39,429 nt of DNA from a virus (Duplodnaviria > Heunggongvirae > Uroviricota > Caudoviricetes): the IMG/VR virus record IMGVR_UViG_2529292726_000015, positions 1 to 39,429 of that record, one strand, 5' to 3'. The notes beneath the pieces are model-generated. The model was not told where the DNA came from. It saw only the letters and a list, made by a program, of their open reading frames with translations, and searched no databases. This document shows positions 2,355 to 35,383 of the stretch, piece after piece (within the stretch, counting starts at the first letter, position 1; the number at the start of each line of letters is the position of its first letter). Position numbers and translations under genes: made by a program.

Positions 2355-3308
2355 TTAGCCACGGTTTACCTCCTGCGGCGGTTTCGGTAGCGGCATCCAG
2401 TGAGTTGCTTGCTCAATACCATTACCCGGCTTAATCGTTACATCTCCGCGCCGAAAGGTGCTTCCGGTATAGCGTGCGGAGCATATTAGCGGTTCAACCA
2501 GAGAGCTATCGAAATTCACCGAAATAAGCACGTTCTGGCCCTTTTCAGGCATTCGCTCACTACAGCTTATCCAACCATCCGGAGTTACCGGAGAGTTGCC
2601 AGCCAGTCTACGCAAAACAGCCTTAACAGCCTCAATACGGTCATCATCGCAATTTTCCAGCGTATCTATGCGGTCGAGCATGATGATGGCGTTATCAATA
2701 TCAGGATTGCCAGTCCACTCATTACCGCGATTGGATTCGGCAGCCTGGTTACCAGATGCGGGTTGATTGTCGGCCTTCCCCAGCCTGTCGTCGCTGCATG
2801 AATGCCCTTCCAGCCAGGCCAATGCTTGTCGCATGAAATACGCAATATGCTTGCCGTGGTAATCGTCTTCATCGATGTGAAAAGCGATACTGCGGATATA
2901 TTCAATTGCGTTTTCAATGGCCTCCGGCGTTACCGGTGCTGACATATTTTGATTTTGGAGTGCCAAGACGCGGCTGGCATCCTCTACGCCTTTAACTGCA
3001 TCTGCGCAGTAGTTATAGCGATTGCATTCCACTAACTTCTGCTTGAGATTTTCAATTGATTGTGCGACATCAGCCTGCAATTCCGGAACTGGCGGAGTGG
3101 CATATAACGGCACCCACTTTGGTGCTTTATCCCCGACCGAACGCTGATACCAGTCACCCGGTTTGTATTCATAAAACTCACCAACAGGCTCTGCTTCCAG
3201 CGATGCCAGCGCAATTCGTGCCAGTTCCATTTGTTCGCCACGAGTAAGCCCGTTTTCAAGCGGATTTTTAATGAACAATTCAATACGTTCTTTGGTAATA
3301 GTGGTCAT
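2355..3308 (-). CDS. Hypothetical phage protein with DUF551-like C-terminus
   Basis: 317-aa ORF; C-terminal PDGWISCSERMPEKGQ...THWMPLPKPP resembles the DUF551 motif common in enterobacterial prophages. Confidence 0.6.
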   Translation of the reverse strand: MTTITKERIELFIKNPLENGLTRGEQMELARIALASLEAEPVGEFYEYKPGDWYQRSVGDKAPKWVPLYATPPVPELQADVAQSIENLKQKLVECNRYNYCADAVKGVEDASRVLALQNQNMSAPVTPEAIENAIEYIRSIAFHIDEDDYHGKHIAYFMRQALAWLEGHSCSDDRLGKADNQPASGNQAAESNRGNEWTGNPDIDNAIIMLDRIDTLENCDDDRIEAVKAVLRRLAGNSPVTPDGWISCSERMPEKGQNVLISVNFDSSLVEPLICSARYTGSTFRRGDVTIKPGNGIEQATHWMPLPKPPQEVNRG

Positions 3309-3318
3309 GTGTTACTCC

Positions 3319-3582
3319 TTAACCCGCAGTGCTTTCAACTGATGAGGGGAACAAAATCTTTTCATCAAACCCTGCATTCATATCATGGACAGCAACACAC
3401 CAATCCATCGACGAACGATTATCAAGAGCCTCCATGATTTCATCCATGCGGCGCAGGTCATACAGGTAAATGCTTTTATCGCCAATGGTGTAAAAACCAA
3501 TTTTTTTCGGTGATGGGCAGCGATCAAGAACGTCCTGTAATTCGTTCAACCATGCCCGTTCTTTTTTTGTTAAAGTTGCCAT
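3319..3582 (-). CDS. Hypothetical protein (87 aa)
   Basis: Internal ATG at 3582 preceded by AAGGAG at proper spacing; stop of upstream gene 1 nt before. Confidence 0.5.
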   Translation of the reverse strand: MATLTKKERAWLNELQDVLDRCPSPKKIGFYTIGDKSIYLYDLRRMDEIMEALDNRSSMDWCVAVHDMNAGFDEKILFPSSVESTAG

Positions 3583-3583
3583 A

Positions 3584-4027
3584 TCACTCTCCTTTGATGC
3601 GAATGCCTGTTGCAATGCTGTTTATGATGCTGTCAGTGCATGGGGTAGAAAGCTGGGCATCTCCAGCAATTTTCATGACCTCAACATCTGCATATCGAAT
3701 ACCGAGGTGTATCAGACCGGCTATGCCTGACTTAAGCCGAGCATTTTCCATAAATAGAACTTTTGCCCGCTGTTTTTCTGCTTCAAGCTCAACGCGCAGC
3801 TTCCCTACCGTTAGCGCAATATCCTCGTTCTCCTGGTCGCGGCGTTTTATGTATTGCTGGTTTCTTTCCCGTTCATCCAACAATGCCAGCGCGATATCTG
3901 GCGAAAAGTGCTTCATAAAATCGTTAAGCGCATTAATTCGCTGATCGAAAGGCATTACAGGTGCTTCACCAGCAATTTTTGTTTTTTCAGCGATTTCACG
4001 AAGCTTTTGATAGTCAATCTTGCTCAC
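3584..4027 (-). CDS. Ead/Ea22-like early protein (tentative)
   Basis: 147-aa ORF starting [15 protein letters not shown], coiled-coil rich; resembles Ea22-family N-termini by recollection. Confidence 0.4.
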
Positions 4028-4518: not shown

Positions 4519-4902
4519 TTAGAAGGGAATTGAATCGTCGTATTCAGGATGATTTTGATGATTGCTACTTTGTTGCTGTTGGCTGTTTCCTGAAGTTGCA
4601 AATCCAATCTTTGCATTCAGTAATTCAAGAGTGATTGATTGACCATTTTGCCCCTGATAAACATCAACCCTGATGTTTTCTCCGGTAATTTCTACAATGC
4701 CACCTTCAACAAGAACACTACGGTAGTAATCCGCTTGCGCTCCCGGCTTGGCAAATACAACGGCACTGTAGTTTGTCCATTCTTTATTTTTTGTCTGGCG
4801 ATCGTAATACTGAACGCCAGCACGGATGTTGAATCCGATATTTTCCCCGGCCTGAAACTCTCTTGCGGGTTTGTTTAGCCTTACTGTAATCGAATGTGCC
4901 AT
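4519..4902 (-). CDS. ssb: Single-stranded DNA-binding protein (short phage SSB)
   Basis: Start at internal Met (MAHSITVRLNK); OB-fold-like; C-terminal acidic tip ...PEYDDSIPF as in SSB; TAATG overlap with erf stop. Confidence 0.75.
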   Translation of the reverse strand: MAHSITVRLNKPAREFQAGENIGFNIRAGVQYYDRQTKNKEWTNYSAVVFAKPGAQADYYRSVLVEGGIVEITGENIRVDVYQGQNGQSITLELLNAKIGFATSGNSQQQQSSNHQNHPEYDDSIPF

Positions 4903-5507
4903 TAAGCAGTTGCCCCTTCTAATTCGTCTCGTCTGATGTTGTAAACGTCCTGCGCTTTGTGCTGCTCCGGTGTGCCTTCGAGCATCTTCCACGCTTTGGC
5001 GAACGCCTGTTTAAGCTCTTCCACGGTGTTTTTCTGCAATGCTGCGTCAGTGAATGCTTTTAGAACCTGTTCAGGTGTAGGTGATGGTTTTGATTGCTTT
5101 GCTGCTGCGTTCTGCTGATGTTTATGTTCGTCGGTATCTGCATCTTTCGCATCATCAATGCCGAACAAACCATTGAGGCAATACTTGCGTGCATAAGAGC
5201 TTGTAGCTCCCGTAACTTGTGCAGAATCCATTCCTTTCTTGCTTTCTTCCTCTCGTGCAAGAGCGGTTGCCGTATGACTGTTTTCGCCATCGGTAATAGT
5301 TGCCGTGGCTTTCACATAATACCGATCACCAATCAACACAACTTCATCGCTGATTGATAAAAACAGGCCATTCAGTAACGGCTTAACGCCTTCAAGAATG
5401 TCTTCGCAGCTTCTGTATTTATATTTACCGAATGAGTTGTACTGATTCTTTGGCGCGTTCAGATTCTCCTGAATAGCTGCCAGTCTTGCGTAAAATTCTT
5501 TGCTCAT
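4902..5507 (-). CDS. erf: Essential recombination function protein Erf (single-strand annealing)
   Basis: MSKEFYARLAAIQENLNAPKNQYNSFGKYKYRSCEDILEGVKPLL... matches P22 Erf; the ORF-track start at 5537 is a TTG extension. Confidence 0.9.
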   Translation of the reverse strand: MSKEFYARLAAIQENLNAPKNQYNSFGKYKYRSCEDILEGVKPLLNGLFLSISDEVVLIGDRYYVKATATITDGENSHTATALAREEESKKGMDSAQVTGATSSYARKYCLNGLFGIDDAKDADTDEHKHQQNAAAKQSKPSPTPEQVLKAFTDAALQKNTVEELKQAFAKAWKMLEGTPEQHKAQDVYNIRRDELEGATA

Positions 5508-5596
5508 ATGATTGTTCTCAGAATGGACATGGCCCAAGGAAATAACGCTGATTTAATACTTCAGTCTTTGCCGCATTTAAAAATACGCGAACACCT

Positions 5597-5767
5597 TCAC
5601 GATCTCCCTTCTGGCGATACATTAACGCCTGCTGCGTGTACATGCGTCTCTGTAACTTGCTCTCCTTCACTGTGGTTGCAAGTGACATGAATATCTCCTT
5701 CGTTACCGATTAAATCTTTCATCTGACGAATGAATTCTTCGTCTGACCAGTTATTTGTAAAACTCAT
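5597..5767 (-). CDS. Small protein in the Arf position (56 aa), function uncertain
   Basis: ATG overlaps the kil stop (ATGA); position between kil and erf as for P22 arf; no sequence-level confirmation. Confidence 0.35.
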   Translation of the reverse strand: MSFTNNWSDEEFIRQMKDLIGNEGDIHVTCNHSEGEQVTETHVHAAGVNVSPEGRS

Positions 5768-5916
5768 TTCCTGCGATACCACGGAAGGTTGATAGCTGAT
5801 TTCATCGCTTTATTTGCTTCAAGCCACATTTTTGAATCACCAATAAATCGGGCTATTACTGCTTTGTTCTGTGCAGCACGAAGCATCTGGTGATTGATGG
5901 CTATTTCATTGCGCAT
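5764..5916 (-). CDS. kil: Kil-like host cell-division inhibitor (50 aa)
   Basis: Below ORF-track cutoff; MRNEIAINHQMLRAAQNKAVIARFIGDSKMWLEANKAMKSAI...; the FIGD-KM motif resembles lambda Kil (TFIGDEKMFREA). Confidence 0.55.
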   Translation of the reverse strand: MRNEIAINHQMLRAAQNKAVIARFIGDSKMWLEANKAMKSAINLPWYRRK

Positions 5917-6035
5917 AACGCCTCCAGTTGTTTCTTTGCTGCTCTGATTAATTGTTTAACTCGGCGTGATAATTCAGATTCGTGCGGGTAGAAAGCGGAC
6001 ATGACGCCGCTACCCGCGAGCTGAAAGTGCATCAT
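5901..6035 (-). CDS. cIII: cIII-like protease (FtsH) inhibitor (44 aa)
   Basis: Below ORF-track cutoff; MMHFQLAGSGVMSAFYPHESELSRRVKQLIRAAKKQLEALCAMK; the ESxLxRxxxxL amphipathic segment resembles lambda cIII; overlaps kil start. Confidence 0.55.
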   Translation of the reverse strand: MMHFQLAGSGVMSAFYPHESELSRRVKQLIRAAKKQLEALCAMK

Positions 6036-6110
6036 GGGTAACTCCTTATATTTGATTGCATAACGAAAACGCCTCAAGTGAAGCGTTATTGGTATGCGGT
6101 AAAGCCGCGC

Positions 6111-6479
6111 TCAGGCGGCTTTGATAGTCATATCATCTGAATCAAATATTCCTGATGTATCGATATCGGTAATTCTTATTCCTTCGCTACCATCCATTGG
6201 AGGCCATCCTTCCTGACCATTTCCATCATTCCAGTCGAACTCACACACAACACCATATGCATTTAAGTCGCTTGAAATTGCTATAAGCAGAGCATGTTGC
6301 GCCAGCATGATTAATACAGCATTTAATACAGAGCCGTGTTTATTGAGTCGGTATTCAGAGTCTGACCAGAAATTATTAATCTGGTGAAGTTTTTCCTCTG
6401 TCATTACGTCATGGTCGATTTCAATTTCTATTGATGCTTTCCAGTCGTAATCAATGATGTATTTTTTGATGTTTGACAT
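6111..6479 (-). CDS. Hypothetical PL-operon protein (122 aa)
   Basis: Intact ORF in the leftward early operon between N and cIII; no recognised family. Confidence 0.5.
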   Translation of the reverse strand: MSNIKKYIIDYDWKASIEIEIDHDVMTEEKLHQINNFWSDSEYRLNKHGSVLNAVLIMLAQHALLIAISSDLNAYGVVCEFDWNDGNGQEGWPPMDGSEGIRITDIDTSGIFDSDDMTIKAA

Positions 6480-6504
6480 CTATTCATATCCTCATAGATA
6501 AAAA

Positions 6505-6532
6505 ATCGCCCTCACACTGGAGGGCAAAGAAG
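6505..6532 (-). terminator. Rho-independent terminator (minus strand) within PL operon
   Basis: Minus-strand stem GCCCTC-CAGTGT-GAGGGC followed by GATTTTTTATC. Confidence 0.45.
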
Positions 6533-6629
6533 ATTTCCAATAATCAGAACAAGTCGGCTCCTGTTTAGTTACGAGCGACATTGCTCCGTGTATTCACTCG
6601 TTGGAATGAATACACAGTGCTTATTCGTA

Positions 6630-7100
6630 CTAATAAAACACCCAGTTTTCTGTTTCTTGGTTGTGTCCAAAGTTATATTCAATATCTGGTGTTGATGTAT
6701 CAATATCCTTCATCCCATCAACAAGAGTTGATACAACAGCCAAATCTTGTTTGATTCTCATTAAATGGTATTTCTTCCGGCGCAATAAACTCTCAATGGC
6801 AAGTTTCTTCGTTGGGAATGCAAAAGATCTTTCTGCATTTTTTGCTACTTTCTTAATTGCATATCTATTTCTCTTTTGTTTCCATTCCTGTAACCACTGA
6901 TTTGGTGCTGGTTTAAAATTAACAATCCAATGCGCAGGAACCAACCATGCATAATGCTCTGTCTGATGAAAAGCTATATATTGAAGTGCGAATATTTTGA
7001 TTCCATCTTCTTCAACTGTCGCCTGGAATCTCCAGAAAACAGGCATTCCATCATGTTCAGTTTCTGATTCAGGAAAAGGTACGCTCCATGATATTGTCAT
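6630..7100 (-). CDS. Hypothetical PL-operon protein (156 aa)
   Basis: Intact ORF immediately downstream of N; AT-rich; no recognised family. Confidence 0.5.
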   Translation of the reverse strand: MTISWSVPFPESETEHDGMPVFWRFQATVEEDGIKIFALQYIAFHQTEHYAWLVPAHWIVNFKPAPNQWLQEWKQKRNRYAIKKVAKNAERSFAFPTKKLAIESLLRRKKYHLMRIKQDLAVVSTLVDGMKDIDTSTPDIEYNFGHNQETENWVFY

Positions 7101-29428: not shown

Positions 29429-30814
29429 ATGGCTACGTGGCAACAGGGTATTAATTCTGGTGGTTTTCTGGCTGGAATTGGTGCGCAAAATGAGAATGCG
29501 CCAAAGGCAAGCGACATTAACGCAACGCTTGGTCTGATCCGCGAAAACAATGAACTGGCTCAATCAGGTGCAAATAACGTTGGTCTGACCGCGTTACGTG
29601 GTCTGGCTGGAGTTGCTGATATTTATAAGCAGGACCAGCAACAGAAAGCGATTAATGCGTTCAATAAGGTTCATGCTGATGCATGGGCTTCTGGTGATCC
29701 ATCGGGACTATTTAAGTTTGCCAAGGAAAATCCAGCGTTTGTTGCGCAGGCACAACAGGCATTTTCCGGTCTTAATGAGCAGCAACGCAACGATATGGGC
29801 GATTTAGCCATGAGGGCTAACGTCGCTCTTTCTCAGGGACCGGAAGCCTACAGTAAATTCATTACTGACAACAAGGACAGGTTAAATCGCGTGGGGGCGA
29901 ATGCTGATTGGATGATTCAGACAGGTATCCAGAATCCAGAGCAGCTATCACACATGCTGACTACTATGTCTCTCGGTGCGCTTGGACCAGAAAAGGCGTT
30001 TGCTGTTCAGGATAAGATGGTTGGTCGCCAGCAGGAGCAGCAAAGAATTAACGAAACCATTCGCAATAATGACATGACGAATGCGAGGGCTATTAGGGGG
30101 CAAAACCTTTCCTATCAGTCTGCAATGACCGGACACGGACTTGCAGCAGAAAGACTGGCACTTGATAAGCAGAAATTCGGTTTTGAAGTACAACAGGCAC
30201 AAAAGAAGGCCGAGGAACTTATTAATGCTGCGCCAAAATTATCAGTGAACATGGAAAAGGCTATAGAAAAATCAGCAGGTGATGCGGCAGCTAGTCGTAA
30301 TGCTGCCGATTCAATGACAACGCTCGCTGACACGCTGGAGAAGGAGAAGCCAACTCCTGGTTTGTTCGGTAACGCTGAAAATATGTTCTCTAAGCTTACG
30401 GGGCAAGATAACTACCTCCGAGATGTGCGGATTAGATTCAACCAACTAGCCAATGCGCAGGCAACCAAGCTTCTCCCTCCCGGCCCTGCATCAGATAAGG
30501 ATATTGAGTTTGCAAGGAAAGGCATTCCAAGCGAAACGGATAATCCAATGGTTATGGCTCGATGGTTAAGGGGTATGGCAAAAATGGAAAGTAATAACGC
30601 GAAATTCAACGAGTTTAGGTCAGAGTGGATGAGTGCAAACGGCAGCCCAGGACAATCTGATCGCAACCGAAACATCATGGGGATGGATGTTAAGAAGGGT
30701 GAATCATTGAACTCTGCGGCAAAACGTTTTCTTTCCTCAAGTTATGGCGATAGCCAACCTCAACAGCAATTGTCCGATGACGAATTAATTAGCAAATATC
30801 TCGGAGGGCAGTAA
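29429..30814 (+). CDS. 20: Ejection protein (P22 gp20-like)
   Basis: 461 aa; position and composition as P22 gp20. Confidence 0.8.
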
Positions 30815-32640
30815 TGGCTTATAGTCGTGAACAATTGATGACGGCGTTAAGGAATGCTGATGCTGCTGGTGATACTGAGGGAGCACGTCGCATTGCTCAG
30901 ATGCTGTCTTCTGGTGATCAATCCACTCAAAACCAATCGCAGCCAGAAGAACAATCTCTGGTAGGAAAAGCTACTGACTGGCTCACTGGTGGTCAAAGTG
31001 CAGGGCAAATTGCTGAACAGGCTGGTCGTGGTCTGGTAAACATACCATTTGACGTATTGCAGGGTGGTGCAAGTCTGATTAATGCAATCAGCCAGGGGCT
31101 TGGTGGCCCAAAGGTTTTGGATGATGTTTATCGTCCAGTAGACAGACCGACAGACCCCTACGCTCAAGCTGGAGAAACAATTGGCGGGTATTTAGTTCCA
31201 GGAGTTGGAACGGCAGGAAGCATGGCTATTGGATCACTGGCAGAAGCCGCAAATCAGAAAGGCGATTTCGCGCAAAATGCAGCAAGAAACGCCGGAGTTA
31301 ACCTTGCCGCTCAGGGGGTTCTTTCCGCAGCAGCAAAGGGAATAGGGCGTGGAATAACGGCTATAAAAGGTGATATTGCGCCAGAAGTGGCGAAGAAAAT
31401 TGCCACATCAGAATCGATGGGCGTGACACCAATGACATCTGATGTTATCCCGCCGAAAAATGCTTTCACTCGCGGCCTTACTCAGGATGCCGAGGGGGCT
31501 TTGCTCGGGACAGGCTCAAAGCGAGCTGAGCAATATGCAACGCGTAGTAAGCTGGTAAGTAATTATTTTGACCGTTTTGGTGAGTACAACCCTGATGATG
31601 TGGTGAAATCTCTGACCACCACGTTAAGGGGGCGGAAGGATGCCGCTGGCGCTGTTATCAATGACGTCACCAATAAAATGGGTAATGCCGCAGTTGATAC
31701 CACAAATACCATGAATGCTCTGAATACAGCGATCGCAAGACAGGAACGGCTTGGGACGTCTGCCAATCAAAGCCTGCTTACATCCTTGCGTAACCTACGT
31801 GAAGAATTAGCAAACCCTGCAACTGATTTGGATGTTACGTTTGATCTCTTGCGTCAGCACAGAACAGCATTTAGATCTAATGTTCAGGGAGATGCTATGG
31901 TCTTCCCCAACCAGGCAAAAGCAGCTACCAATATGGTAGAGAATGCAATGTCAAAAGACCTTCGTAACGCAGTTGCTAAAAACCTCGGTGCATCAGACGC
32001 AGCAAAATACCTTAAAGCAAATTCCGATTATGCAAACGTTTATAATAAGGTGCTTAATAAAAACATTGCTAACAAGCTCAACAAGGCAAGCAGTGAAGCC
32101 AGTCCTGAACTTATAAATACCGTTGTATTAAGCAGAAAACCATCTGACGTTAAACGAATCTGGAGCGCATTGGATGATAATGGGAAAGATGCTATGCGTG
32201 CAGCTTACGTCAGCAAAATAGCGGAAAAGGCCGGGGACTCTCCAGCCAAGTTCATCACTGAAGTTAATAAGCTGAAATCTCAGTCAGGCGGTGAAATTTA
32301 CAACACTATTTTTTCTGGAAAGCACATGAAAGAGCTTGATGCTCTTCATGAAGTTCTACAGCAAACAGCAAGGTCAGACACCGCAAATGTAGTAACTCAG
32401 ACGGGGCAATCGCAAGCCAACAGGATAAGGACGATTGGCGCAACTGCGACTCTTGGGGCAACACTGGCGCTTGAATCTGGTTTCGGTGCAATGATGCGCT
32501 TGTATGAATCCAAAGCCGCAAGGAATGCGCTCTTACGTCTGGCAAACACTAAAGCTGGAACGCCAGCCTATGAAAGAGCGCTGAATAACGCCGCAAATGC
32601 CATCAGACCAATACTTGCCAATGATGCAACTGATCGCTAA
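30814..32640 (+). CDS. 16: Ejection protein (P22 gp16-like)
   Basis: 608 aa; position and length as P22 gp16. Confidence 0.8.
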
Positions 32641-32661: not shown

Positions 32662-33300
32662 TTAATTGCGAATGGAATCGCGGAACTCTTTACTTGATAG
32701 AAAAGGATCTGTTCTCCTTAACTCATCATAGTTTTTATTAAACTTTCTTGCTTCACCAGGGTATCTGTTGAACAAAACATTGCAGAAAAAAGAGAGCAAT
32801 AACTCACATATGAATGCTAATATCCTGAAAAATAAAGGTATAAAAAGAAGGAAAGGTTCATTGAAGTCTCTATTCCAAACAAAATAGACAATCATCCCGA
32901 CATACCAAATTGATATCCCTATACTGATGATTGTTCCAACAGAGGTAACTACGATCCCGATTAAGTCGGACAGTCTGTTTGCCAGTAACTCATTTGAGTA
33001 TCTTGCAATCATATACCGCCAACATTTTGCAATATCATCCTGATCTGTAGAGTCTTCTGGAATGGCTAGGCTTCTACATATTGAAGCAGCTCTTTTTTTC
33101 TCAACTCTTTTTGAGAGCCATCCATTAAAGAGATACATCAACACCTGCGTTGCTATTCCTGCACCAAGTGATATCAAAGACATCCCCAAAAATCGCCACC
33201 CTGGAGATAGTGACTGGTACTGCCAAACAAAAAAAATTAAAAAACCTAATGATCCTATGACATAGGCTGATGTATCGCTATATATATCTATTTTTTTCAT
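32662..33300 (-). CDS. Polytopic inner-membrane protein; superinfection-exclusion (SieA-like) candidate by position
   Basis: 212 aa with several hydrophobic segments; strongly AT-rich; opposite strand to virion genes; sits where P22 carries sieA. Confidence 0.5.
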   Translation of the reverse strand: MKKIDIYSDTSAYVIGSLGFLIFFVWQYQSLSPGWRFLGMSLISLGAGIATQVLMYLFNGWLSKRVEKKRAASICRSLAIPEDSTDQDDIAKCWRYMIARYSNELLANRLSDLIGIVVTSVGTIISIGISIWYVGMIVYFVWNRDFNEPFLLFIPLFFRILAFICELLLSFFCNVLFNRYPGEARKFNKNYDELRRTDPFLSSKEFRDSIRN

Positions 33301-33678
33301 TGAGTAGCCACTCCTTAGTTTTGAGCAGGATACCAGATGATACTGTATTGGTGGAGTGGTGTGTGAAAACGTGTCAACGACAAACCATCCACAACTTGGA
33401 CGAATGATTTAGCAAAAAGTGCTATTTTTGGTGTTTAGTGTCATAGAAAAGTGAATAGCTCACTTTTCAACATTGCATGAAACTTGCAGGAAATGTGACA
33501 TTACCTTATAGGTAACTTCGGCGAAAATGCAGTAAATGTGAAACGTAATGGTTTAAACATGTCGCTAAAGTGGTTGTAAGTTAGCCTCCGAAGGATTGCT
33601 GATAGCTTTGTTATAGTATTAAATGACATTTGACATAGTTGGATACTTAGCTGTGGCTATCAAGATGGAGGTGTGTTC

Positions 33679-34122
33679 ATGCTTACTTGTTTTGATGTCG
33701 CCGACTACTTCCTGTCGCGGTGTGACGAGGATAGCGGTGACACAATCTCTAATTTAAAATTACAAAAGCTTGTTTACTATGCTCAGGGTTTTTCATTGGC
33801 GTTGCTTGGCGAGCCTCTTTTTCAGAATAAGATGGAAGCTTGGATGCATGGCCCTGTTGTCCCTGAGCTTTATCGCCGTTATAAACAATATGGTAATGGC
33901 GCTATCCCTTCTCCAGAGTCTTTTGATGCTGAAAAATTCAGCGAAGAACAGTTAGAGCTATTAGAAGAAGTCTGGGATGTTTTTGGGCAATTTTCTGCCT
34001 GGAAACTGAGGAACATGACACACGAAGAGTCACCATGGAGATCAAACTATATTGAGGGTGTTGGTGGTTCTGAAATTAGCTCTAAGGAGATGGCAGAGTA
34101 CTTTGCAACTCGGATTAACTAA
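33679..34122 (+). CDS. Panacea (DUF4065)-domain protein, putative antitoxin-type component
   Basis: LKLQKLVYYAQGFSLALLGEPLF...EAWMHGPVVPELYRRYKQYG matches the Panacea/DUF4065 signature as recalled; ATG at 33679 preceded by GGAGGTG. Confidence 0.65.
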   Translation: MLTCFDVADYFLSRCDEDSGDTISNLKLQKLVYYAQGFSLALLGEPLFQNKMEAWMHGPVVPELYRRYKQYGNGAIPSPESFDAEKFSEEQLELLEEVWDVFGQFSAWKLRNMTHEESPWRSNYIEGVGGSEISSKEMAEYFATRIN

Positions 34123-34126
34123 CGAG

Positions 34127-34546
34127 ATGGCAAGAAAATCTAAAAGGATTATCCCCCCTGCTGAATCTACAGGTAAGTTAAAGTTAGGGCCGCAGTCAGG
34201 GGGGAATTCAGATCAAAAGAAACCGAAATTTTCATTCTGTTACATCCAAAGCTCTCACTGCATAACGAAATGCCAAAAAGATGAGAAAGCTGGCTTAGCT
34301 GATAAATTATACAGATTAAGTCAACTAACATGGGCAGAGATTAAGCAGCAAGGTAGGCATAAGCTTGGATTTGAGAAGATTGCAAGGGGTGCGATTAAAG
34401 CAGGTATCCCCAGTCATATAACGGAAGACGTAGATCATTTCTTGGCTTTTAGATTTGATGATTTGAAAGCCATGGTTGGTTATCGTCTTGGATCGACATT
34501 TTTTGTTATATGGCTTGATAGAGAGTTCAACCTATACAAGCACTAA
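34127..34546 (+). CDS. Unrecognised 139-aa protein immediately downstream of the Panacea gene (candidate toxin/effector partner)
   Basis: ATG 5 nt after the Panacea stop; basic N-terminus (MARKSKRIIPP...); no family recognised. Confidence 0.45.
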   Translation: MARKSKRIIPPAESTGKLKLGPQSGGNSDQKKPKFSFCYIQSSHCITKCQKDEKAGLADKLYRLSQLTWAEIKQQGRHKLGFEKIARGAIKAGIPSHITEDVDHFLAFRFDDLKAMVGYRLGSTFFVIWLDREFNLYKH

Positions 34547-34547
34547 T

Positions 34548-34575
34548 AAAACCCACCGTCAGGTGGGTTTTTTAT
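34548..34575. terminator. Bidirectional rho-independent terminator between convergent genes
   Basis: Stem AAACCCACC-GTCAG-GTGGGTTT flanked by A-run on the left and T-run on the right. Confidence 0.6.
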
Positions 34576-34598
34576 AAGGAGTAATCATGATTTACCCA

Positions 34599-35135
34599 TC
34601 AAACAACCCACCAGTTTGCCTGATTGGATGCCAGCCTTGCAGTTTTTATGGAATTAATTATGCCATGCTCAAGAGCCTTGTTAGCATCCAAAATGGTCGA
34701 GTCTGCTATCAGGGATGCCCACCTAATATGGGTTCCGATGTCGATATTGAACGTCTCAACGAAGCGATCAAGATCGTTATCGAGGCATTTCCCGTACTCT
34801 CTCAATCTGGCATGGTCGGCGGCTGGGGTGGCAAAGCCCCATAATAGAGGATGTAACAGGAATCTTGATAATGGGTTTGCGAAACGTTCTGAGCCAGCCA
34901 GGAAAACGATATTAGCTATGGACTCAACATTGCTTATGTTGTGAGTTCTAACGGTAACAGGGAGTGACTTAAGAAAGTTATACGCAGTAAAACCAGCGGC
35001 AGTTTCCCCTCCCTGACTTGATATATGGATATTTAATTCAGTTGCGCCTTGAGATAATGCGGTGAGACAGTGGTTCTGAAGTTGCCCAACAGTGGCGGTG
35101 TTAACGGGGCATAAGAAATGAATTGTGTGCAGCAT
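34599..35135 (-). CDS. ClpP-like (S14/ClpP-crotonase fold) serine protease homolog
   Basis: IHISSQGGETAAGFTAYNFL...ISNVESIANIVFLAGSERFANPLSRFLLHPL aligns by eye with E. coli ClpP (YINSPGG...CMGQAASMGAFLL...MIHQP), including candidate Ser and His; ATGA overlap with mnt stop. Confidence 0.6.
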   Translation of the reverse strand: MLHTIHFLCPVNTATVGQLQNHCLTALSQGATELNIHISSQGGETAAGFTAYNFLKSLPVTVRTHNISNVESIANIVFLAGSERFANPLSRFLLHPLLWGFATPAADHARLREYGKCLDNDLDRFVETFNIDIGTHIRWASLIADSTILDANKALEHGIINSIKTARLASNQANWWVV

Positions 35136-35383
35136 TATTTATCATCCTTACCATACATGGTTTTCAGCGTCTCCAGCAGCGCCTCTTTGAATTTGTCAGC
35201 TTCTTGCTGAGCAAATGACTCAACTGACTTTGGCGACCTATCTTCATCAATCGCGGCTTGCAAAATCATGACGATCTCGGAGTTAACAGAGCGACCATTT
35301 TTTGATGCTCTAACAGCAAGAGCCTCGCGCAAAGATTCAGGGATTCTTACCGTAGTTGGAGAAATTGACACACCCTTTGCCAT
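35135..35383 (-). CDS. mnt: Mnt-like ribbon-helix-helix repressor
   Basis: 82 aa; N-terminal RHH region with NGRSVNSEI resembling P22 Mnt/Arc (ANGRSMNSEL); divergent from arc-ant. Confidence 0.75.
   Translation of the reverse strand: MAKGVSISPTTVRIPESLREALAVRASKNGRSVNSEIVMILQAAIDEDRSPKSVESFAQQEADKFKEALLETLKTMYGKDDK

Follow-up and report, generated by a model that had tools for sequence, protein, structure and literature searches.

A Panacea gene and its RelE-fold partner in the accessory region of a P22-like phage: an already published candidate PanAT pair

What is the two-gene cassette that lies between the ejection-protein gene and mnt in a P22-like phage, and does it work as a toxin-antitoxin (TA) system, as a defence system or as something else? 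The stretch of DNA analysed here (39,429 nucleotides, referred to as the window) is the genome of a P22-like (Lederbergvirus) temperate phage. Over about 33400-34600, it shares 99.8% DNA identity with Escherichia phage phiv205-1 and 99.4% with Salmonella phage vB_SemP_Emek (hereafter Emek). A first-pass annotation of the window had delimited two genes, ORF1 (33679-34122) and ORF2 (34127-34546), and had presented them as a candidate uncharacterised system. Both genes are real and lie where it had placed them, between the ejection-protein gene and mnt; this interval, which corresponds to the sieA/immI accessory region, also holds two other accessory genes, SieA-like and ClpP-like. The features of the region are the following:

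30814-32640, ejection-protein gene, left of the cassette and of the SieA-like gene
32662-33300, minus strand, gene of a SieA-like superinfection-exclusion membrane protein (phrog_7745, E 1.7e-20), adjoining the cassette on its left
33311-33678, plus strand, non-coding leader of the cassette (368 nt); identity with Emek begins at about 33311
33609-33617, plus strand, tentative extended -10 element TGtTATAGT, picked by eye
33667-33671, plus strand, Shine-Dalgarno sequence GGAGG of panA, 7 nt before the ATG at 33679
33679-34122, plus strand, panA (ORF1), 147 aa, standalone Panacea/SocA-like domain protein
34127-34546, plus strand, panT (ORF2, cluster T1), 139 aa, disordered basic N-terminus (1-30) followed by a RelE-fold putative RNase domain (31-139)
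34548-34571, no strand assigned, hairpin terminator common to the cassette and the convergent clpP-like/mnt operon
34578-34844, plus strand, 85-aa ORF with a strong AAGGAG and an ATG, antisense to the ClpP-like gene
34599-35135, minus strand, ClpP-like serine protease gene, terminal gene of the mnt operon
35135-35383, mnt, in a leftward operon with the ClpP-like gene; arc and ant lie beyond

The Panacea signature that had been noticed in the first gene was borne out by a Pfam HMM check. The panA product matches SocA_Panacea (PF13274, DUF4065) with an E-value of 1.8e-24 and 87.3 bits, above the gathering threshold of this model (25.7 bits), and therefore belongs to the Panacea family. The match covers residues 28-120 of PanA and positions 1-112 of the 113 of the profile, and the protein is a bare Panacea domain, without DNA-binding or additional neutralising domain. 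It also matches phrog_1281, is named 'Panacea domain-containing protein' in RefSeq (WP_000954425.1) and is found with its exact sequence on at least 1000 contigs, while a sequence search against all PDB chains gave no meaningful matches. A GTG at 33673 was considered as an alternative start of panA and excluded, as it is too near the GGAGG.

The second gene begins 4 nt after the stop codon of panA. The two genes are translationally coupled and ORF2 is a genuine gene: RefSeq PGAP annotates genes of 147 aa and 139 aa at exactly equivalent coordinates in E. coli prophages, and a search of 5.8 billion proteins yielded 182 relatives of ORF2, nearly all of which are 135-145 aa long. A profile of the family retrieves 1572 members among 1.84 billion cluster representatives, 872 of them at E <= 1e-10. 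Between the two enterobacterial alleles of the cassette (see below), pN/pS values are 0.34/0.78 for ORF2 and 0.20/0.79 for panA, synonymous sites being saturated (pS about 0.8); judged from these substitution patterns, both genes are under purifying selection. In the second allele, a stop codon directly precedes the ATG of ORF2. Taken together, the lengths of the homologues, the PGAP annotation and this stop-bounded allele indicate that the ATG at 34127, giving the 139-aa form, is the true start. In public annotations, ORF2 is given at least four start positions, which lead to products of 139, 147, 160 and 161 aa (34052-34126 in the window, 3662-3727 in locus L001). The three longer forms, which open at TTG codons inside panA, are gene-calling artefacts.

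The claim that the cassette is an uncharacterised system did not survive comparison with the literature, as a near-identical pair from Emek had already been catalogued and its partner expressed in E. coli. Using the DUF4065 model to scan genomes, Kurata et al. 2022 (PNAS, PMC8832971) predicted 1268 pairs of PanA and toxin, the latter falling into 88 clusters. In Dataset S1 of this work, the Emek proteins YP_006560565.1 (PanA, 'noNTD') and YP_006560566.1 form a pair of cluster T1 in antitoxin-toxin order. Among the Panacea-associated partner clusters, T1 is the first in the numbering and occurs in many bacterial phyla; HHpred predicts 'mRNase' for the T1 partner, which is classed as a predicted mRNase in Table S1 (PMC8832971). 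To be retained in that study, a locus had to have its two genes no more than 100 nt apart, paired in two species or more and not part of a longer operon (PMC8832971). With its 4-nt spacer, its conserved pairing and its own leader and terminator, the cassette of the window is a predicted PanAT locus by the same rules. It has the same gene order and the same standalone Panacea protein as the Emek pair, from which it shows no material biological difference. The cassette of the window is thus an already published candidate PanAT pair.

According to Table S1 of the same study, the Emek T1 protein proved 'not toxic' to E. coli BW25113 cells expressing it from pBAD33, the neutralisation entry for this pair is 'n/a', and the T1 protein from E. 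coli MOD1 was likewise 'not toxic' (PMC8832971). In contrast, the Clostridium cadaveris member of T1 was 'toxic' in E. coli, and its own PanA 'failed to neutralise' it (PMC8832971). The authors caution that non-toxicity in E. coli leaves toxicity elsewhere possible (PMC8832971). Given the published status 'not toxic', the Emek pair is a candidate and not a validated TA system. Once translated, YP_006560566.1 is found to consist of 161 aa: 22 residues (LVVLKLVLRRWQSTLQLGLTNE), encoded from a TTG inside panA that lies 66 nt upstream of the ATG of ORF2, precede the 139-aa protein, the core of which differs from that of the window by a single residue (E71D). The published gene overlaps, -62 for Emek and -20 for E. 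coli MOD1, agree with forms of 161 and 147 aa, respectively. As the plasmid is named after the accession, it can be inferred that the annotated sequence is what was synthesised, and both enterobacterial T1 proteins were probably tested with extended N-termini. The 'not toxic' result is therefore not decisive: the accession tested for Emek carries 22 spurious N-terminal residues. The first-pass annotation had held that a non-toxic second ORF would speak against its proposal; such a result is on record for the Emek partner (PMC8832971), and its weight is reduced by this 22-residue false extension. In the searched literature, no later paper was found in which the toxicity of T1 pairs or their role in phage defence is tested, and no RNase activity, PanA-PanT binding or anti-phage phenotype of the T1 family was found to be reported. 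The supplement text of Ernits et al. 2023, in the part that was available, does not mention the pair of Emek and the window.

What, then, is the partner? The earlier statement that ORF2 belongs to no family holds for Pfam only, since the protein has a RelE/ParE-type fold, shows homology with NsnC and falls into PanT cluster T1. A Pfam scan of ORF2 and 50 relatives (51 members) returned only noise. The predicted structure adopts, with high model confidence, an alpha/beta fold of the RelE/ParE superfamily, of the RelE/YoeB/YafQ type, and the closest folds are all those of toxins or defence effectors. Searched with Foldseek against a library of viral structures, the model had no match at E <= 0.001. 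In sequence comparisons, the family profile has no meaningful match among all PDB chains and gives no signal (probability <1%) when compared by hhalign with E. coli YoeB and YafQ, the query sequences of which had been verified against PDB entries 2a6q and 4ml2. ORF2 does not match any curated Pfam or NCBIfam model of RelE, ParE, YoeB, YafQ or HigB either, and this lack of a sequence-level link to RelE, YoeB or YafQ counts against the RNase reading. The NCBIfam model MAG6450_fam is matched below threshold by 42 of the 51 family members, which brings no functional information.

A link of another kind was found with NsnC, the effector of the Menshen defence system. ORF2 matches the PADLOC model of NsnC with an E-value of 5.9e-6 over positions 178-279 of 284, i.e. 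in the C-terminal domain alone, and this C-terminal match is found in 50 of the 51 family members (best E-value 1.7e-10). According to Li et al. 2025 (PMC12065111), the C-terminal PB-BECR1 domain of NsnC belongs to the Barnase/EndoU/Colicin/RelE superfamily and is a YafQ-like RNase with a His-Arg-His triad; their paper makes no mention of a link to T1 partners. Ten positions (R77, H78, E83, K84, R109, Y119, R120, D131, Y137 and the C-terminal H139) are invariant or nearly so in the ORF2 family and fall on predicted strands, the sheet and the C-terminal tail. Mapped in this way from conservation and secondary structure, they may form a putative RNase active site, and the His-Arg-His pattern is compatible with that of NsnC (H78, R109/R120, H139). 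Judged by sequence homology, the T1 partner is the RNase domain of NsnC, a known defence effector, in free-standing form. The two proteins differ in their N-terminal parts, as NsnC carries an inactive-PIN domain where ORF2, with its 139 aa, has only a disordered segment. The surroundings differ too: nsnA (ParB-DUF262) and nsnB (ABC ATPase) are absent near ORF2, whose neighbours are panA, the SieA-like and ClpP-like genes and mnt. A PADLOC scan of panA and the SieA-like and ClpP-like genes (mnt not being included) gave no match.

Other known systems resemble the cassette less closely. RelE, YoeB, YafQ and HigB are BECR-fold ribosome-dependent mRNA interferases, which ORF2 resembles in its predicted fold without detectable sequence-profile relationship. 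ORF2 differs from them by about 30 extra disordered basic N-terminal residues and by its pairing with a Panacea protein instead of the usual antitoxins RelB, YefM, DinJ and HigA. SocAB, the type VI TA system of Caulobacter and founding Panacea system, has the SocA/Panacea domain in common with PanA, but PanA scores well under the SocA equivalog cut-off (NCBIfam NF047745, 71.4 vs 190 bits) and the RelE-fold ORF2 is unrelated to SocB.

The panA-ORF2 pairing is conserved far beyond this phage. Among 30 IMG/VR loci, only two alleles of the cassette were found (17 and 13 loci), whose products share 71% amino-acid identity for PanA and about 55% for ORF2, and the pairing is the same in both enterobacterial alleles. 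Of 5426 complete E. coli genomes, 48 carry the window allele with a query coverage of at least 80%, the exact proteins occur on hundreds of E. coli and Salmonella contigs, and relatives within clusters at 90% identity are found in E. fergusonii and Klebsiella. In three of three distant homologues of ORF2 (45-53% identity), a Panacea gene lies directly upstream at a distance of 5-35 nt. One of them, from Aeromonas, belongs to a P2-like prophage, where it lies, with two other genes, between the tail-completion gene S and the baseplate gene V; that of Solidesulfovibrio, in another, unrelated prophage, adjoins a P22-type portal gene; the third, from a metagenomic bacterium, has a chromosomal, non-phage context. 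panT was found without panA in no locus, and the sole locus with panA but without panT carries a degraded cassette (L041, IMG/VR UViG 2681813004_000016, about 4836-6812). In this locus, panA is truncated at the equivalent of window position 34087 and panT is replaced by about 2 kb that include an IS5-like transposase fragment and lambda-like tail genes, with the terminator retained.

The cassette is also mobile. The unit exchanged relative to Emek spans about 33311-34590 (1.28 kb), and the left and right neighbours of the cassette vary between phages. In similar prophages, among them the one of the E. coli type strain, this slot is occupied instead by a gene of a 188-aa hypothetical protein and a gene of a YafO-family toxin:

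2428-3452 of loci L010 and L011, 188-aa protein and YafO cassette, prophages of E. coli APEC 16-1068 and ATCC 11775

This cassette agrees with PanAT in its position and orientation, in its layout of two genes and in its terminator, right junction and neighbours, but its gene products bear other annotations and its leader is common with that of PanAT in the first 47 nt only. It ends at the same terminator, and the slot is thus a hotspot for TA-like two-gene cassettes, and this hotspot adjoins superinfection-exclusion and immunity genes. The gene found at the SieA-like position varies in every related phage that was inspected, and all of them have in common a 47-nt junction bearing an RBS. On the right side, the RBS and start of the 85-aa ORF (34578) constitute the conserved junction of the cassette, which in Emek opens a different gene, orf61. 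In the window, the 85-aa ORF 34578-34844 is probably a recombination remnant and not a gene.

The leftward sie-like gene has its RBS (AAGGAG in reverse complement) within the left 47 nt of the leader; past them, the leader was found only together with panAT, and the idea that it is a general backbone element of P22-like phages was rejected on this ground. The segment 33311-33545 (235 nt) is 96-100% identical across both alleles of the cassette; over the 133 nt that adjoin the start codon (33545-33678), allele 2 is about 88% identical. The leader contains a perfect 9+5+9 palindrome (GAAAAGTGA-ATAGC-TCACTTTTC, 33446-33468, 23 bp) and two copies of a 14-nt direct repeat. Its folding signal on the plus strand is modest (z -2.5), and an Rfam scan of the cassette and leader returned terminator look-alikes only and no family. 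The 33311-33545 segment may act as a flank for recombination, as a divergent promoter/operator region or as an RNA. The AT-rich promoter region that had been described upstream of panA holds in part: the region is mildly AT-rich (GC 0.39-0.41 vs 0.45-0.49 in the ejection-protein gene 30814-32640), but a scan of the plus strand of the cassette region for consensus sigma-70 promoters found no canonical site. The bidirectional terminator proposed at the other end agrees with the hairpin 34548-34571 (-15.8 kcal/mol, z -3.86), which is preceded by AAAA and followed by TTTTTT; with an A-run upstream and a T-run downstream, it is plausibly bidirectional. A simple terminator scan missed this hairpin, the counterpart of which is annotated as a rho-independent terminator in the Emek record.

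The ClpP-like gene that faces the cassette raised the possibility of a dedicated partnership with PanA, in the style of the SocA adaptor. Its product matches Pfam CLP_protease (E 4.3e-12), has 'Clp protease' 9uxt_A as best solved relative (E 4e-35) and possesses a Ser and a His that are aligned to the catalytic residues Ser and His of ClpP1. The gene was found in 128 of the 5426 complete E. coli genomes; among the matches listed in these genomes, it adjoins an Arc-family gene in nearly all. It was found with both PanAT alleles and also with the YafO cassette, is absent from Emek and is missing in several PanAT-bearing phages. This distribution rules out a dedicated partnership.

The cassette is thus a self-contained T1 PanAT moron of the accessory region of a P22-like phage, and the question becomes what it does. 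The reading that accounts best for the data, tentative and held at slightly less than an even chance, is that PanT is a conditionally active RNase restrained by PanA and serving prophage defence or exclusion. The PF13274 match of PanA, the RelE fold of its partner, the homology with NsnC, the conserved pairing, the purifying selection, the mobility and the toxic member from C. cadaveris all speak for it. Against it stand the two enterobacterial T1 proteins reported as 'not toxic' and the failure of the C. cadaveris PanA to neutralise (PMC8832971). The 'toxin-antitoxin or defence moron' of the first-pass annotation fares similarly: this framing fits the anatomy, the conserved pairing and the mobility of the cassette, but the partner is reported as 'not toxic' (PMC8832971). 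The published non-toxicity speaks against a simple toxin; an artefact of the construct or a latent effector would each be in line with it.

By analogy with validated standalone PanAs, the following model can be proposed. In the lysogen, PanA would bind PanT directly and keep the RNase silent. A trigger, most plausibly the infection by another phage, would then inactivate or release PanA. Once free, PanT would cleave RNA, probably ribosome-associated mRNA, so that translation would stop and the infection would be aborted. The non-toxicity of the partner alone might result either from the mis-annotated N-terminus of the construct or from an RNase that remains latent until it is activated. Ernits et al. 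2023 (PMC10440598) found that standalone Panacea domains neutralise toxins directly; the domain has also been suggested to act as a sensor, and its role is debated.

A more speculative proposal, possible and on balance rather unlikely, is that the T1 partner is a latent RNase of the Menshen-effector lineage that is switched on only during infection, PanA being a sensor or gatekeeper and not a simple antidote. In that case, the two genes would amount to a minimal prophage defence, exchanged for other TA-like cassettes at a dedicated hotspot of P22-like phages, with the almost invariant 235-nt segment and its palindrome involved in its control. Such an infection-activated RNase would explain why two enterobacterial T1 proteins are non-toxic in standard TA assays.

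Among the alternatives to a PanA-restrained RNase, the one that survives best, although doubtful, is that the pair is not a TA system at all. The RelE-fold protein would be an RNA-binding or RNA-processing factor, either benign or highly specific, or would be catalytically tuned to a phage or host target; PanA would be the partner or regulator of this protein, and the phage would draw from the pair a benefit that has nothing to do with growth arrest. This would account for the two enterobacterial T1 proteins that are non-toxic in E. coli; the strong conservation of the family, which implies that the protein does something, also speaks for it, as does the fact that the role of Panacea is itself debated (PMC10440598). 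However, catalytic-type residues are nearly invariant, the nearest folds are all toxins or defence effectors, one member of the family (that of C. cadaveris) is toxic and the tested constructs carried extended N-termini.

Classical addiction by post-segregational killing, in which a stable PanT and a labile PanA would penalise prophage loss with no defence role, is improbable. The cassette does have the architecture of a type II TA system, with the antitoxin gene first and tight coupling, it is retained intact in the 48 complete E. coli genomes mentioned above, its exact protein occurs on hundreds of contigs, and a YafO TA-like cassette fills the same slot. Addiction nevertheless requires toxicity, and the partner alone is reported as not toxic; segregational killing would be of little gain to integrated prophages; and the neighbouring exclusion and immunity genes, together with the kinship to a defence effector, suggest a role against other phages. 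That ORF2, a RelE/ParE-superfamily protein of RelE/YoeB/YafQ fold type, would be a ParE-like gyrase poison and not an RNase is very improbable.

For the T1 family, which spans many bacterial phyla, of which a profile search retrieves 1572 cluster representatives and whose activity is so far only predicted, the present analysis adds three points, beyond which it is a rediscovery of a published candidate. The version of T1 carried by enterobacterial phages was probably tested with a wrong start codon. The T1 partners are connected by sequence to the effector domain of Menshen. Lastly, the pair, with the leader anatomy described here, occupies a swap-prone slot beside exclusion genes.
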